From Ionaspis alba (taxonomy: Eukaryota), in NCBI GenBank assembly GCA_964255285.1, contig CAXUUL010000070.1, forward strand, positions 1-37,980: a stretch of DNA of 37,980 nucleotides, given 5' to 3'. The notes under the pieces were generated by a model. That model was not told the origin of the DNA and did not search any database. It saw nothing but the letters and a program-made list of their open reading frames with translations. Below, in pieces: positions 17,078 through 23,873 of the stretch. Numbering within the stretch: the stretch's first letter is position 1; each line of letters starts with the position of its first letter. The translations under genes were made by a program, and so were the position numbers.

Positions 17078-18703
17078 ATGATAGGATTTCTCATCATGTT
17101 TGTCTCCCCAGCCATCATGTTAGCAATAGAGCTTTTCCTGTTTGCCACACGGGTCACAGCTGCCAGAACTCCTGGTAGCTTCACCGTCATAGGATTCGGC
17201 AACCCCGTCGTAGTTGGACGTGAGGACCCAATCGTCAGTCCAGGCAGAGTTTCGGGCCATGTTCATACCGTCATGGGAGGCAATGCATTTGCTCCTGCTA
17301 TGTCTGACGATCAAGCCCTACGCCAATCGACTTGCACGACAAGCCAAGTCAAGAACGATCGCAGCAATTACTGGGTGCCGAGTCTATACTTTCACGCCTC
17401 CAATGGAACTTTTACTCCTGTCCAGGCAACACAATTTAACGTCTACTATGTGTATGTATGCGAGTGAACTTCTGCTGCCAAAATGTCAGTAACAAATCCC
17501 CTTTCAGCTTCGAACGATCAGACGATGAGATGGTTTCATTTGAACCAGGCCTCCGCATCGTGGTTGGTGATCCATTTCTCCGAACAAAACCCCAGAATGC
17601 TGGCTATAACATCGATCCTGCGAAGGGACCAATCCAGCCAATTCAGATCACTTGTCCAGGCTCAGGAGCATATGTTTCGCAAAATTCGGGTTCGGCAGAC
17701 TCTGGAGTTGGATTCCCGGATAGAGACTGCAATGTTCAAGGGACAGGATTACGTTACGACATCTATTTCCCGTCCTGCTACAACCCCGCAATCCCGCTGG
17801 CAGATTACAAGAACAACATGCAGTACTCCTCTAGCCAAGGCGCATCCTCTGGAAGCAAGAATTGTCCCCCGGGCTGGAAACACCACCCTCAATTGCACCT
17901 GGAGATTTACTGGAATGTACACGCTTTCGCTGATGAGTGGACCGAAGGGACAGAATCAAGTCCTTGGGTTCTGGCACAAGGCGACCCCACAGGCTATGGA
18001 CTGCATGGCGACTTTGTAAGTGGGTTCCTCGAGATACGGATATATTTCGGCTCTAGTGCATGAACTGATCGCTATATAGCTCAGCGGGTGGGATGTCTAT
18101 ACACTATCTACCTTGATTAAATCGTGCAATTCTGGAGACGCACGAGTCGACCGGTGTCCGTCTGTGCCTGGTGGCATCAATAGCAACATCGAGATGAATA
18201 CGTGCTCCATGGCCCCATCCGTGAAAGAACCTATCTGGGGTCTCCTTGACCGCTTACCAGGATGTAACGGGATCCAGAATCCGCCGGGCCCTGCCGTGCA
18301 GCAGGCTTCTTGTGGCGCTGTAACTGCCTTGAGCCAGCCGATAACTCAATTTACGGACGTAACAACCGAAAAGGGCTGGAAATACGTTGGCTGCTTCACG
18401 GACATGATCAATGGCCAACGTGTTCTGAGCAAAGCCAGCCAGAATGCCTACACCTCCACCATTGTTCCTGTCACGGTCGAGTCGTGCATCGACTTCTGTA
18501 GTCTCCGTGGCTACTCGATGGCTGGACTGGAAGATGGCATGCAATGCTGGTGTGATAACTCCATGAATACTGCCAATGGTAATGGAGGCTCCTCTGGGCT
18601 GTGTAATCTTCCATGCCGGTCAAACCCTAAGCAGATCTGCGGCGGTGCTCTGGGTTCCATGGGTGTCATTTCTGTTTATCAAAGATGTGACGGTTCTTGC
18701 TAA
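17078..18703 (+). CDS. Secreted DUF1996 + WSC domain protein
   Basis: Hydrophobic N-terminus. DUF1996 motifs REDPIVSPGRVSGHVHTVMGG, STCTTSQVKNDRSNYWVPSLY, IYFPSCY and GDPTGYGLHGDFLSGWD. C-terminal WSC domain WKYVGCFTD...TVESCIDFC...AGLEDGMQCWCDN...CNLPC...QICGG. Introns 17452-17507 and 18016-18079. The start could be a downstream Met (e.g. 17117). Confidence 0.9.
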
Positions 18704-19188: not shown

Positions 19189-20283
19189 TTAAGTTACAAT
19201 TGCGGTCTGCATGGGCAATCGCTCTAATTTGAAGCTGTAGACCCCGAACCCCCCTGTGCCTGTCATTTCCCAGACCTCCGTGACCTTGTACAAGCCATCG
19301 TAGCGGTAACCCTTAACGGGAGCCCCACGCCAGCAGCAGTTTGAGCCGCGGACAACCCTCACTGGTTTTCCAGTGGCACATGATACCAGTAGAGCCGCGT
19401 TGCCTTTGCTGAGAACCTGATCACAAACCCCTGAGGCTTGATCTTGCATTAGTCGTGCACTATAAAACACAGCCGCAAAACTGTCTTACGCTCATCCATT
19501 GTTGGCTTGGCCTTACACTTCGAATTTCCTGATGCTCTTCCACCTTCTCCGGTGTAGAACAAGCTATGGCCGTCACCGTCATCCTTATTATCCTGGTAGA
19601 CGCCCGACACGACGATTGAGTAGGCCCCGATGCCGAATTCCCCCAAAATGCCGTTCATGTAACCCCGGTGCACACACATCTGGTGGATGTCTACTCTGGT
19701 GTTGAACTTGTGCCCAACTGCAACGCCCTCGACGTGTCCGAACTGCTTGGCGCGCACCAAATCAGACCTTTTCACAGTAATAGGAGCCTTGTCAGACAAA
19801 TCGATAGACTTGACGAGATTGAAGGGGTCAAATACACCATAGGCGTCATGGCTGAACAAGAGGACTTTGTCTTTCCCTGCTGGTCGGTCGATGCCGCAGG
19901 TCAATTCATGGGTTGCCCTCATCAGCGTTAGGCAAGGCTCGACGACGCTTGGTATTACGTTGGCACTTCCGTTCAGGGCTTGTGTAGTCGCTGCTGGATT
20001 TAAACGTCTCGATTTTCTTTGCTGAATACCGATGGGGCAGGATAGTTTTCTTTTCGTACGAGGCTCCACGGAGGGCATTGGAGCAGATCTGGTCGCATCG
20101 GGTGGGCCATCTCTTGGAGCGAGCAACTCAAGGTCGTGAAGTACAATCAGACGCAGAGCAACATTATCAAGCCTATTGTATTCGCGTAAGTCCTTCGAGC
20201 GCAACTATTGGCTCTAAACGGAAATTTACGTACCGTCCTTGCTCGTACTCGGAGATGCTCATATCGGAAGCGAACTGGTCCAT
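19189..20283 (-). CDS. Stand-alone SRA/YDG (methylcytosine-binding) domain protein, ~324 aa
   Basis: SRA motifs FGHVEGVAVG, VHRGYMNGI, AYSIVVSGVYQD, LFYTGEGG, DQVLSKGNAAL, PVRVVRG, APVKGYRYDGLYKV and FKLERL. Exons 20283-20234, 20172-19490, 19430-19189. Introns 20173-20233 and 19431-19489 are GT-AG and frame-consistent; the second intron has alternative same-phase sites. Confidence 0.88.
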
Positions 20284-21428: not shown

Positions 21429-21779
21429 CTTTGAGGTGGACTGCTTCAGATTGTTTGTTTGCAGACTGAATGATTTCAATAAGTTCTCTTGTCTTGAACT
21501 GTCCTTTGTTCAAAGAATATCTGTTCTTCCACGGACCAAATCGAGTTTGCGTGAATGGTTCAAAGAAGTCACATAGAGTGCAGAAGAGTATTCTGAGGAG
21601 TTGACGTTGATGATTTGCGCGGCCCGTCTATTTCTCCTTCTCCTAAAAGGTCACACTTCGCAAGGTCGCCCTATGACAGGGCGTAGTGCCGGGGGATTCT
21701 CCAAGGAATCGAGATTCGGACCTATCATTTTAACCGCCATGCGATGGGGGATTAGACGTCATGGAGGCGGGAGCTTGCT
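21429..21779. promoter_or_regulatory. Short bidirectional promoter region between LSM5 and the exonuclease gene
   Basis: The two start codons are head-to-head with 351 bp between them. Confidence 0.5.
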
Positions 21780-23873
21780 ATGAACTCGCACTCGAGGCTG
21801 ATTCGAAGCCGAATACGGCTTGATCTTCTCTATAGCCAAAATCGCCTCTCCTCGGTGACTGTTCGGACTCTGGCAGTCAATAACTCAGCATCAGCCATCA
21901 AGACCGGCGTCACACAAGAGAGGTATGGTGTAGCGTCTGCGATGTCTTCGGGCACCTGGCAACCGTATTTGGGAATCCAATTCTCCAGTCCTACCAACGT
22001 ACGAGAGCGTGATGTTCACCAAAACGCCATCCAGGAAAGGCTAAGGCACAAGTCGCATGTGGCAAATTGCAGCGTGTATGGCGAGTTTGGCAGCCATAAT
22101 GAGCACGGGAAGATCGAGCAGACACAATCTGCGTGCTCGCTACTTTCGAAAAGCTATGAGGATTATGATCCCGCATCGTTGTTGTCGTCACGCCTGTCCC
22201 AACCAGGAAAGTCTCGGACATCAAGCTCCCACAACTCTACCAAGTCCACTCTCTTAGACCTTGACCACAAGAGCGAATCCGCGCCTCGACGTGCTAGTCA
22301 GCGATCGGGGCTCTACTCGGGCCTCAGTCATCAAGATAGTACTTCATGCAGTGGATTACTTCCCACTAAGTCTATGGAATTCCACTCAAAATCATCTATA
22401 CCGTCGAAGCTATATCACACACGAGAACTTTCTCATGTATCGAGCTCGACTTTGTCCTACAGAACCTGTTCGCATGATGATGAGATCGATGATAAGCTCA
22501 TGTGTCTACTCCCAGGTTCGTCTAGCAACCCTGAGAAGTCTGGAGTAGAACAGTTACACTGTGGGGTTTGCAACGAGAAGTCTCAACAATCTCATCCGAG
22601 ACCTCCCGCGTCTTTGAAATTTCGGATACCGGAACCGTCGCTGAGAGACGCCATGCTGGCTTCGAAGAGCACAGGAGCCGCTTACTGGCGGTATTCGCTC
22701 TACGAGACTCCCACTGGTGACAGGGTGAAAGTCCACTACTGTAGAAGCAAAGAGACAGCTGAACGGATTGCCCGGCTTTTCTTGGATGAAGACGTGGTCG
22801 GATTCGATATCGAATGGAAGCCGCAGGCCAACGCCAACGATGGAATCAAGAAGAATGTTTCACTAATACAGCTAGCCAGCGAAGAACGAATCGCACTTTT
22901 TCATATTGCAAGATTCTCCAAGGGTGATACTGTTGACGACCTGGTGGTACCGTCACTGAAGACACTGATGGAGAACCCCAATATCAGCAAAGTTGGTGTA
23001 TCGGTTAAAGCAGACAGCAGCCGATTGCGTAAGCATATGGAAATTGATTCACGTGGTCTTTTTGAGCTCAGCCATCTACACAAACTCGTCAAGTTTTCGA
23101 ACGATGATGTCAAGAAAATAGACAAGATGCTGGTGTCGCTGGCGAAGCAGGTGGAGGAGCATCTGCAACTCCCGCTGTGGAAAGGGGATGTTCGATCCAG
23201 CGATTGGAGCGAGGAATTGAGCTATCAGCAGATTCAGTATGCGGCATCCGATTCCTACGCTGCGCTAAAGCTATACGATGTTTTGGAAGACAAGCGGAGA
23301 GGGTTAGATCCCGTGCCGCCCCGTCCCAAGCATGCGGAATTGAATTTACCCATCCGGCTCGCCAATGGACAGACAGTTGCAACCTACGATGAGCCAGACA
23401 GGGTCCTTGACATTACCACTACTGATACCAACGATTCGTCTGCCAGCATAGAAGAAATGGCTCGGAATTTCCTCAACATTGCCTTGGAAGATGGTGAACG
23501 GAAATCTCCAGACCCGCAGAGGATGAGTAGGTCACCGGGGACGATGTCCAAACCCCCCGAGGTTGTCCAAGCGGAGCAGTGGTTGAAAAATTGGCGTGCC
23601 GATCTGCCGGAAGGCTATAAACCACGAGCGACTCCTGCGTTCCTGCGTGCATATTCCCTGTGGTACCACCAAGCAAAAGACGTGCAAGGGACAGCGGAGT
23701 TATTGAGAGAGCCGCCCTTGCAAGCTTCAACAGTTGCAAACTACATTTTGGAGGCCGTTCGTATCGAGAAGCTACCGTTCGAGAAGGACCGTCTCAGAGA
23801 TGTCTTGAAGTATCTGCCTGGAGAGGTTGCAAAGGCGAGATACCAGAGCTTGAAGAAGGTGTTAGGTAATTAG
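21780..23873 (+). CDS. WRN/EXD2-like DEDDy 3'-5' exonuclease with C-terminal helix-turn-helix-like region
   Basis: ExoI VVGFDIEWKP, SLIQLAS, KVGVSVKADSSRL, SLAKQVEEHL and ExoIII SDWSEELSYQQIQYAASDSYA. C-terminal LRAYSLW...TAELLREPPLQASTVANYILEA. Single 697-codon ORF. Confidence 0.9.
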   Translation: MNSHSRLIRSRIRLDLLYSQNRLSSVTVRTLAVNNSASAIKTGVTQERYGVASAMSSGTWQPYLGIQFSSPTNVRERDVHQNAIQERLRHKSHVANCSVYGEFGSHNEHGKIEQTQSACSLLSKSYEDYDPASLLSSRLSQPGKSRTSSSHNSTKSTLLDLDHKSESAPRRASQRSGLYSGLSHQDSTSCSGLLPTKSMEFHSKSSIPSKLYHTRELSHVSSSTLSYRTCSHDDEIDDKLMCLLPGSSSNPEKSGVEQLHCGVCNEKSQQSHPRPPASLKFRIPEPSLRDAMLASKSTGAAYWRYSLYETPTGDRVKVHYCRSKETAERIARLFLDEDVVGFDIEWKPQANANDGIKKNVSLIQLASEERIALFHIARFSKGDTVDDLVVPSLKTLMENPNISKVGVSVKADSSRLRKHMEIDSRGLFELSHLHKLVKFSNDDVKKIDKMLVSLAKQVEEHLQLPLWKGDVRSSDWSEELSYQQIQYAASDSYAALKLYDVLEDKRRGLDPVPPRPKHAELNLPIRLANGQTVATYDEPDRVLDITTTDTNDSSASIEEMARNFLNIALEDGERKSPDPQRMSRSPGTMSKPPEVVQAEQWLKNWRADLPEGYKPRATPAFLRAYSLWYHQAKDVQGTAELLREPPLQASTVANYILEAVRIEKLPFEKDRLRDVLKYLPGEVAKARYQSLKKVLGN

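Follow-up and report, generated by a model that had tools for sequence, protein, structure and literature searches.

The minus strand of Ionaspis alba contig CAXUUL010000070.1 carries, between positions 20283 and 19189, an intact three-exon gene for a protein that combines a single SRA domain with a two-part N-terminal module, namely a helix motif followed by the short motif R-x-S-x-R-L. Judged from profile searches and motif spacing, this two-part module is common to SRA-only proteins and to the N-termini of fungal and animal CMR1/WDR76, where its parts are spaced alike. We tentatively propose that the protein is an SRA-only reader whose WDR76-type module may dock LSH/MUS-30 at flipped methyl-cytosine. 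As such it would be a candidate adaptor, a reading that we consider plausible rather than probable.

Gene structure and SRA domain

The window analyzed in our study is a stretch of 37,980 nucleotides of this contig, and all features of the gene lie on the minus strand. We regard 20283-19189 as a real gene with predicted splicing. Its two introns, of 61 and 53 nt, both have GT..AG borders, and joining the exons by their coordinates with a script gave a coding sequence of 981 nt that is in frame and encodes 326 amino acids with a single, terminal stop. Exon 1 (20234..20283, 50 nt) begins with an ATG at 20283, and a further ATG at 20262 lies in the same frame. It encodes residues 1-16 and two bases of Arg17, and with them the opening half of the helix motif (S-E-Y-E-Q-G-R). 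It is followed by intron 1 (20173..20233; 61 nt, GTACGT...AG, phase 2), which is predicted with comparative support. Joining exon 1 to exon 2 restores the motif [S/T]-E-Y-E-x-x-R-x-x-N-[I/V], which is uninterrupted in SRA-only relatives such as P0006, P0012 and P0023. If intron 1 is retained, the frame of exon 1 reaches a stop at the intron end, and we found no upstream ATG in the frame of exon 2 that would keep the helix motif. Exon 2 (19490..20172; residues 17-245 in part) encodes the second helix half, a basic segment, the RKSRRL motif, a middle beta element and the first half of the SRA domain. Intron 2 (19437..19489; 53 nt, GTAAGA...AAG, phase 1) has a CTAAT branch-like site, and exon 3 (19189..19436) encodes the second half of the SRA domain, residues 245-326, with a TAA stop at 19191-19189. 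The first-pass annotation had already placed an intron at 20173-20233, and this gene model holds in coordinates and sequence, with a joined frame that is open up to the terminal stop under the predicted splicing; the second intron was not spelled out there. Contigs from two sequencing runs, X1 and X2, cover the gene. X1 was one identical 14-kb piece, unspliced, and X2 comprised four short low-depth pieces without joints, one of them crossing intron 1 unspliced; both are DNA-like and therefore silent on splicing and expression.

The SAD/SRA domain (Pfam PF02182; 19207..19742, about residues 161-320) is split by intron 2. Exon 2 matched the SAD_SRA profile with 67.4 bits (profile positions 2-76) and exon 3 with 82.9 bits (positions 59-148) at a cut-off of 30.7, so that the two halves jointly span positions 2-148. 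A stand-alone SRA architecture had been claimed before and was borne out, as the Pfam search of the 326-aa protein found SAD_SRA alone and no SET, RING, PHD, nuclease, WD40 or zf-4CXXC_R1 domain. The N-terminal 160 residues contain the helix, the basic motifs and the short beta element and nothing else. Matches in the PDB were the SRA domains of UHRF1, UHRF2, SUVH4/5/6 and TagI, with E 6.8e-13 for exon 2 and UHRF1 and E 1.8e-14 for exon 3 and SUVH4.

A functional SRA pocket, as known from UHRF1 structures, has two stacking aromatic residues and an Asp that reads the cytosine edge, and the N-K-R finger of UHRF1 occupies the space that the flipped base has vacated. In the alignment with mouse UHRF1 (2zkd_A) the pocket sequence A-G-G-Y-E-D-D is changed to S-G-V-Y-Q-D-N in Ionaspis alba, with G replaced by V and D by N. 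The finger S-G-N-K-R is changed to S-G-N-S-K, which keeps the Asn and replaces the Arg by Lys. The two stacking tyrosines are unchanged, and so are the H-R-G core and the T-G-E-G-G-R turn. Moreover, the family alignment has an Asn at the pocket Asp position in the relatives P0013, P0017 and P0035 as well. The protein thus resembles UHRF1, UHRF2 and the plant SUVH proteins in its SRA domain, its pocket tyrosines and its finger Asn, but differs from them in the substitutions described and has neither an E3 ligase nor a SET domain. The UBL, tandem Tudor, PHD and RING domains that canonical UHRF1 carries beside its SRA domain are all missing.

The N-terminal module and its distribution

The coding region of the helix motif (20121..20259, residues 9-34) is interrupted by intron 1. 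In the spliced protein the helix, which is amphipathic, follows the pattern [S/T]-E-Y-E-x-x-R-x-x-N-V, then L-x-x-L-x-L, and it aligns gap-free to SRA-only relatives. The expression [ST][ED][YF]E..R had two matches in the window, counted over 75,956 positions in six frames, and one of them is exon 1. Besides, the spliced N-terminus was the top match of both helix profiles among the 1,151 six-frame ORF pieces of the window, and none of 2,000 shuffles of it reached the real score. The helix is followed by an RTKRK basic cluster (20046..20060, residues 55-59), which aligns with a K-K/R-R-K cluster of the relatives and may act as a nuclear localisation signal, and by the RKSRRL motif (20001..20018, residues 69-74), an exact R-K-S-x-R-L. 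In the family alignments (A3 and A4) at least 90% of the rows agree in the R, S and R columns of the latter motif. Both the RTKRK segment and RKSRRL had been noted in the first-pass annotation and are present as described, now aligned to relatives. A middle element (19821..19868, residues 119-134), a hydrophobic strand followed by D/A-x-G-x-F/Y, aligns across the family.

Structure models of the relative P0023 suggest which of these parts are ordered. The helix equivalent was predicted to be helical over residues 6-24 (pLDDT block means 78-92), the equivalent of the middle element was modelled as two strands (132-137 and 143-145, block means 78-93), and the R-x-S-x-R-L region came out disordered (pLDDT below 50). 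A two-copy model of P0023 residues 1-45 scored 0.04 against a mark of 0.32, a value that counts neither for nor against self-association. We found no Pfam family for the module. A PDB search with both module profiles returned chance-level matches only, the best being a nucleotide phosphatase at E 0.048, and a search of the ESM Atlas with P0023 residues 1-75 gave no usable match.

A word-indexed homologue search with exon 2 returned two matches. A full HMMER scan returned 723, 14 of which had E<=1e-10; the closest relative among the sequences searched was 41% identical. We then compared N-termini by means of two profiles, for each of which candidates were chosen by shared words and 8,000 were scored. 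The first profile (A1), built from SRA-family N-termini alone, gave 15 matches at E<=10, comprising 12 SRA proteins, one protein without a Pfam domain (P0160, E 1.7e-5) and two WD40 proteins (P0161, E 0.079; P0162, E 0.62). P0161 bears the name 'DNA damage-binding protein C...', which we take as CMR1, and CMR1/WDR76 was the sole other Pfam-annotated family found with these SRA-family seeds. The helix profile (A2) gave 91 matches, namely 47 WD40, 14 SRA and 2 Myb-like proteins and 28 without a Pfam domain, and all WD40 matches bearing a source name were CMR1 or WDR76 from fungi, plants, a coral and a fish. Some Myb-like proteins and SRA-only proteins from other Pezizomycotina also have the module, and the E-Y-E, R, N-I and N of the helix recur across fungi, plants and animals.

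The likeness to Cmr1/WDR76 had been put forward in the first-pass annotation, together with the suggestion of an HMM built from CDCA7/Cmr1 helices. In a reciprocal search we scored 158 sequences with an HMM of 42 non-redundant WDR76 helices. Twelve SRA proteins matched at E<0.01, the best at 2.7e-9, although the WD40 helices used here are enriched for likeness because the search that yielded them used a profile with SRA helices in it. The spliced Ionaspis alba protein matched at E 7.7e-3 among the 158 sequences, and its unspliced ORF gave no match. The distance from the helix to R-x-S-x-R-L is 56 residues in Ionaspis alba, counted from the helix Tyr, 49-70 in the SRA family, 52-62 in nine WD40 proteins and 70-72 in the Myb-like proteins. 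In the plant WDR76 matches the helix is present, and a regular expression did not find R-x-S-x-R-L. Profile matches in both directions and the kept spacing indicate that the Cmr1/WDR76 likeness is real and spans the whole two-part module. In yeast Cmr1, Neurospora WDR76 (NCU09302) and human WDR76 this module comprises [S/T]-[E/D]-Y-E-x-x-R-x-x-N-I-x-x-N-x-x-x-L with R-x-S-x-R-L 52-62 residues further on. However, CMR1/WDR76 proteins carry a WD40 propeller, whereas the Ionaspis alba protein carries an SRA domain and has no WD40 match; it has the module in common with the family and is not a member of it.

The helix of the Ionaspis alba protein itself is a diverged example, as the first-pass annotation had cautioned. 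The WDR76-only profile scored it with 8.9 bits and aligned only its first 12 residues (residues 10-21), the second conserved Asn is replaced by Arg, and the L-G-L end has Glu instead of its G. The seven best SRA-only proteins, which include Geoglossomycetes proteins, reached 22.9-29.6 bits with the same profile. Since both the helix and the pocket have diverged, the activity of the protein may be weakened or altered.

Proposed docking of LSH and alternative readings

A possible partner of the module is indicated by what is known of WDR76. In Neurospora, MUS-30 and WDR76 co-purify reciprocally, which agrees with the association named in the first-pass annotation, and equivalent interactions have been reported for yeast Cmr1-Irc5 and mammalian WDR76-LSH (PMC4714748, available text). 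HELLS is likewise listed among the WDR76 interactors in the accessible part of a further study (PMC11331135). We suggest that the module may be a portable docking element through which different domains that read chromatin or DNA attach to a single shared partner. Given the co-purification of WDR76/Cmr1 with LSH/HELLS/Irc5 in Neurospora, yeast and mammals, this partner would most likely be the LSH/MUS-30 ortholog. The Ionaspis alba protein would then bring this partner to DNA whose methylated or hemimethylated cytosine is flipped into the SRA pocket. For Arabidopsis it has been proposed that DDM1 may depend on further methylation readers (PMC12718391, available text). Nevertheless, WDR76 has other partners, among them SPIN1, CBX proteins and histones (PMC11331135, accessible part), so the module could dock elsewhere. 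Moreover, the Neurospora LSH homolog was described as dispensable for DNA methylation in the available text of PMC4714748, and a link to LSH therefore need not concern 5mC.

The proposed adaptor is comparable to CDCA7 in its logic alone, in that both combine a known or putative reader domain for methylated DNA with an N-terminal helix. CDCA7 has a zf-4CXXC_R1 domain, a sensor of hemimethylated DNA, whereas the Pfam search found none in the Ionaspis alba protein. To our knowledge, targeting of LSH/HELLS/DDM1 is understood for CDCA7 only, and we know of no CDCA7 in most ascomycetes. The N-terminal helix of CDCA7 (HLBH) may resemble the Ionaspis alba helix, a putative likeness put forward in the first-pass annotation. 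None of the 106 matches of the two word-based searches (15 and 91, from 8,000 candidates each) carried zf-4CXXC_R1 (PF10497). The HLBH binds the CC2 helix of HELLS (PMC11343034, available text), which agrees with the binding of HELLS that the first-pass annotation had invoked as background. In the accessible part of an eLife coevolution study CDCA7 was absent in five Pezizomycotina species of the panel (PMC10538959). Our literature search found no publication that connects the N-terminus of WDR76 with binding of HELLS or with the helix of CDCA7, with most subscription journals lying outside this search. A broader claim would be that the module serves quite generally as a docking code for LSH/HELLS/DDM1, in use in WDR76/CMR1, SRA-only proteins, some Myb-like proteins and, following the first-pass annotation, CDCA7, and that the SRA-only protein of Pezizomycotina acts as the methyl-DNA adaptor for LSH, recruiting it to chromatin that is methylated or RIP-mutated. 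Taken as a whole, we consider this claim rather unlikely.

Alternatively, the module might be a general element for chromatin or nuclear targeting and not a dock specific to LSH, which would leave the protein as a plain nucleosome-tethered reader of 5mC or hemi-5mC. The K/R cluster would then be the nuclear localisation signal, R-K-S-x-R-L would be a nucleosome arginine anchor or touch DNA, and the helix would bind histones or some other shared factor. Such a role would fit the presence of the module beside reader domains that are unrelated to one another (WD40, SRA and Myb-like) and the predicted disorder of R-x-S-x-R-L, which is usual for short linear motifs. Furthermore, cross-links of WDR76 to the histones H2B, H3 and H4 have been reported, and the N-terminal part of WDR76 was modelled beside SPIN1 and the nucleosome (PMC11331135, accessible part). 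However, the helix motif is highly specific, and the same polar residues across fungi, plants and animals suggest one defined partner surface; nor does any of our computed results indicate a contact to histones. We regard a general targeting role as somewhat unlikely, although it is the alternative that fares best.

A second alternative is a role like that of Cryptococcus Uhrf1, in which the SRA-only protein reads hemimethylated CG and aids DNMT5 or DIM-2 as the maintenance methyltransferase; the module would serve that pathway and not LSH. According to the available text of 10.1101/149385, Cryptococcus Uhrf1 has an SRA domain without the Tudor and RING domains of human UHRF1, binds hemimethylated DNA and parallels H3K9 methylation in promoting Dnmt5-dependent 5mC; the first-pass annotation had cited this pathway in agreement with it. 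The Ionaspis alba protein is SRA-only and without Tudor and RING in the same way. The eLife study, in its accessible part, notes fungal UHRF1 homologs without a RING domain, and three of the ten Ascomycota of its panel (Saitoella, Taphrina and Uncinocarpus) have a UHRF1-like protein, with DNMT4 in three of the three, DNMT5 in two and HELLS in three (PMC10538959). On the other hand, a role of this kind leaves the module in WDR76 and Myb-like proteins unexplained. It is compatible with docking of LSH, and we consider it unlikely.

Finally, the gene might encode a paralogue in the course of divergence or decay that has hardly any function left or none, perhaps poorly expressed, whose helix and 5mC pocket have drifted, as the low helix score, the G to V and D to N changes and the few close relatives would suggest; we consider this improbable, since the frame is open over three exons with canonical splice sites, both tyrosines, the H-R-G core and the turn are kept, the D to N change recurs in relatives and the first helix half is identical to P0006 in 8 of 12 residues (by eye) against 41% over the matched stretch, with R-K-S-x-R-L exact.

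Implications for fungal SRA-only readers

Compared by description, the Ionaspis alba protein shares with Cryptococcus neoformans Uhrf1 (CNAG_00677) and with RING-less fungal UHRF1-like proteins a single SRA domain and the lack of Tudor, PHD, UBL and RING. It differs from UHRF1 by its pocket substitutions, and the helix and R-K-S-x-R-L module is absent from the description of the Cryptococcus protein in the available text (10.1101/149385). We regard the Ionaspis alba protein as a variant of the known SRA-only reader. Whether Uhrf1-like adaptors act in other fungi is unknown according to the accessible part of a 2026 review (PMC13297926). The module shared by WDR76 and SRA-only proteins is a testable candidate for the LSH-binding surface of WDR76. 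Moreover, it is a candidate for a second, SRA-based route from DNA methylation to the remodeler. If the module docks elsewhere, it would still be a short linear module, so far undescribed, that three families of readers have in common.

Gene structure and SRA domain

On the minus strand (20283-19189) three exons encode a predicted protein of 326 aa. Exon 1 starts with the ATG at 20283, provides an open frame of 50 nt and ends at a GTACGT donor (20233); intron 1 (20233-20173) closes with an AG acceptor at 20173, directly followed by the long open frame of exon 2 from 20172. A second intron of 53 nt (19489-19437, GTAAGA...AAG) with a CTAAT branch-like site interrupts the coding sequence of the SRA domain. 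Joined by coordinates, the three exons give 981 nt in frame with a single terminal stop; if unspliced, the exon-1 frame terminates at the end of intron 1. Re-reading of the sequence upheld the coordinates and the N-terminal peptide of 33 residues given in the first-pass annotation as well as its RTKRK and RKSRRL motifs, and SAD_SRA is the sole Pfam domain of the protein, in line with the reported absence of SET, RING, PHD and nuclease domains. That annotation had described intron 1 and left intron 2 implied.

Pfam SAD_SRA was matched by exon 2 (profile positions 2-76, 67.4 bits) and exon 3 (positions 59-148, 82.9 bits) at a cut-off of 30.7. Among solved structures, exon 2 matched UHRF1 SRA domains (E 6.8e-13) and exon 3 matched SUVH4, SUVH5, SUVH6 and UHRF1 (E 1.8e-14 to about 1e-7). 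Three motifs of mouse UHRF1 are altered in the window protein, where A-G-G-Y-E-D-D reads S-G-V-Y-Q-D-N, F-T-Y-T-G-S-G-G-R reads L-F-Y-T-G-E-G-G-R and S-G-N-K-R reads S-G-N-S-K. In terms of residue roles in the UHRF1 structures, the two stacking tyrosines and the Asn of the finger remain, Asn takes the place of the cytosine-reading Asp, and Lys that of the finger Arg. Three relatives also have Asn at the former position, and the Glu of T-G-E-G-G is common to most of the family. Binding of a flipped cytosine by this domain is plausible.

Around the gene lie housekeeping genes of an ordinary fungal kind (condensin Cnd2, Na/Ca exchanger, eIF3m, EH-domain protein, DUF1996 and WSC, 3'-5' exonuclease-domain protein, GH5, rhomboid, CMAS-type methyltransferase, ferric reductase and EXS), and no sign of a mobile element was found among the neighbours in the window. 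A DNA_pol_A_exo1 3'-5' exonuclease open frame of 705 aa (21756-23873, plus strand, E 3.9e-20) is transcribed divergently to the SRA gene, at a distance of about 1.47 kb from the ATG of that gene. Just downstream of the gene, on the opposite strand, two adjacent open frames (17440-18703, plus strand) carry DUF1996 (E 1.1e-33) and WSC (E 7.5e-19); both probably form a single gene, divided by an intron, whose product is a secreted or wall protein.

The N-terminal module and WDR76/CMR1 proteins

A full HMMER scan of exon 2 against 1.84 billion representatives yielded 723 matches at E<=1e-3 and only 14 at E<=1e-10, which marks the window protein as a diverged member of its family. Several of the closest matches (P0006, P0007, P0012 and P0023) begin with an unbroken [S/T]-E-[Y/F]-E-x-x-R-x-x-N-[I/V] and continue with a K/R cluster and then R-K-S-x-R-L. 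In the alignment with relatives, the start of window exon 2 forms the second half of the helix, the first half comes from exon 1, and RKSRRL lands on R-K-S-x-R-L. Moreover, the pattern [ST][ED][YF]E..R occurs twice in 75,956 six-frame window positions, one occurrence being exon 1. The continuous motif of the relatives, the alignment and the rarity of this pattern together lend intron 1 good comparative support, short of proof. Contigs of two sequencing runs are unspliced here and resemble DNA. P0014, P0015 and other SRA-only relatives start at R-K/R-S-x-R-[LI] and lack the helix; since the helix of the window gene is split by an intron, these may be models or ORF calls missing a short first exon rather than truly helix-less proteins.

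Profile A1, made solely of eight SRA-protein N-termini and the first part of window exon 2, was run on longer proteins, with 8,000 candidates scored and a cut-off of E<=10. The 15 matches comprised 12 SRA proteins (seven seeds and five new ones, including proteins of Geoglossum, Glutinoglossum and Trichoglossum), a 218-aa protein without Pfam domain (P0160, E 1.7e-5) and two WD40 proteins. This search is free of seed circularity, and its E-values for the WD40 proteins of Fibroporia (P0161, 0.079; listed as 'DNA damage-binding protein C...', taken as CMR1) and Mortierella (P0162, unnamed, 0.62) are marginal on the scale of 5.8 billion sequences. The helix-only profile A2, whose 12 seeds include P0160, P0161 and P0162, gave 91 matches: 47 WD40 proteins, 14 SRA proteins, two Myb-like proteins and 28 without Pfam domain. 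The WD40 matches originate from Mortierellomycota, Basidiomycota, many plants, a coral and a fish; every one with a source name is called CMR1 or WDR76, and 46 of the 47 contain the motif pattern, the exception being an N-terminally truncated entry.

For the reciprocal test, an HMM of 42 non-redundant WD40-protein helices, which were gathered with an SRA-containing profile and are thus enriched for likeness, was applied to 158 sequences, made up of 155 SRA-search proteins and three window forms, and found twelve SRA proteins at E<0.01 (top E 2.7e-9). With this HMM the spliced window protein reached 8.9 bits (E 7.7e-3); its unspliced ORF was not matched. Besides, R-x-S-x-R-L follows the helix Tyr after 56 residues in the window protein; eleven further SRA proteins have 49-70, nine WD40 proteins 52-62 and the two Myb-like proteins 70-72. 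Because of the searches with both profiles, the reciprocal HMM and the spacing, we consider the likeness to Cmr1/WDR76, put forward in the first-pass annotation, to be real; it extends to a two-part module, more than a short helix. The predicted window product combines a sole SRA domain with an N-terminal module of the WDR76 type.

The helix of the window protein is itself weak against the WDR76 profile (aligned over residues 10-21 only), with Arg for the second conserved Asn and L-E-L for the L-G-L end. The nearest relative, P0006, is 41% identical within the matched stretch; the second half of its helix has diverged to a similar degree, and by eye the first half agrees with the window protein at 8 of 12 positions. 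The first 45 residues of the window protein outscored 2,000 of 2,000 own shuffles with WD40-only (12.8 bits, shuffle maximum 9.2) and SRA-only (13.1 bits, maximum 8.4) helix profiles, and the helix was the top match among 1,151 six-frame ORF pieces of the window at an E of only 0.056.

The relative P0023 (Geoglossum simile) was modelled with AlphaFold2 from a 22-row family alignment (mean pLDDT 70.6). Its model contains a helix at residues 6-24 (pLDDT block means 78-92), a disordered basic cluster and R-x-S-x-R stretch (below 50), a conserved middle element of two strands (132-137 and 143-145; block means 78-93) and the SRA domain at high confidence. The middle element, a hydrophobic strand and then D-G-T-F/Y-E between the basic motifs and the SRA domain, corresponds to residues 119-134 of the window protein (19821-19868, minus strand) and about 125-147 of P0023; P0012 lacks it.

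Distribution of the module

Named relatives carrying the module belong to Lecanoromycetes (Lignoscripta), Geoglossomycetes and Sareomycetes. RING-less SRA homologs of fungi are already known (PMC10538959, Figure 4 legend). Supplementary file 1 of that study lists UHRF1 for three of ten Ascomycota (Saitoella, Taphrina and Uncinocarpus reesii), and Neurospora, Pyricularia, Aspergillus, Penicillium and three yeasts have none. Two short SRA-only spider entries named 'E3 ubiquitin-protein ligase UHRF1' (P0051, Caerostris darwini, 317 aa; P0053, Stegodyphus mimosarum, 227 aa, partial) contain the module, with a diverged helix and R-R-S-x-R-L. The architecture may accordingly be older than fungi; alternatively, the two sequences may be contamination or fragments.

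Both Myb-like matches are DNA-binding proteins of Mortierellomycota (P0199 and P0212) with the same helix internally, at 122 and 174, and R-T-S-N-R-[IL] 70-72 residues past it; they thus join a third reader domain to the module. Many of the 28 A2 matches without Pfam domain (P0160, P0163, P0164, P0171, P0175, P0178, P0195 and others) begin with a near-consensus helix. Some may be WDR76 gene fragments, and P0175 and P0195 have sub-threshold HRDC matches.

Possible partners of the module

In Neurospora, reciprocal co-purification and a genetic interaction connect the remodeler MUS-30 (LSH) with WDR76, and the pair has been reported for yeast and mammals as well (PMC4714748). Human WDR76 interactors likewise include HELLS (PMC11331135). 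A literature search that took in few subscription journals returned no description of the shared module and no mapping of the LSH-binding region of WDR76. We tentatively favour the view that the module is a portable docking element with a single partner, LSH being the likeliest. The module could instead be a general nucleosome or nuclear-targeting element, which we regard as unlikely. Somewhat less probable again is a Uhrf1-like helper of DNMT5 or DIM-2, a role compatible with the LSH reading. Cryptococcus Uhrf1 has an SRA domain without Tudor and RING and binds hemimethylated DNA (10.1101/149385). Least probable is a drifting, weakly functional paralogue.

The N-terminal helix of CDCA7 binds the CC2 helix of HELLS and recruits HELLS to hemimethylated DNA (PMC11343034). 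CDCA7 has a zinc finger, whereas the window protein lacks it and is therefore not a CDCA7 family member; it may still act in a comparable way. No zf-4CXXC_R1 protein was present among the 15 A1 and 91 A2 matches, a blank that is weak evidence since either search relied on shared words and was limited to 8,000 scored candidates; none was found at a loose threshold in 20 proteins either (the two Myb-like ones plus 18 for which no Pfam domain is listed). The module profiles matched no PDB chain. If the module is a dock as we tentatively propose, the window protein would couple SRA-based DNA reading to the module's partner.
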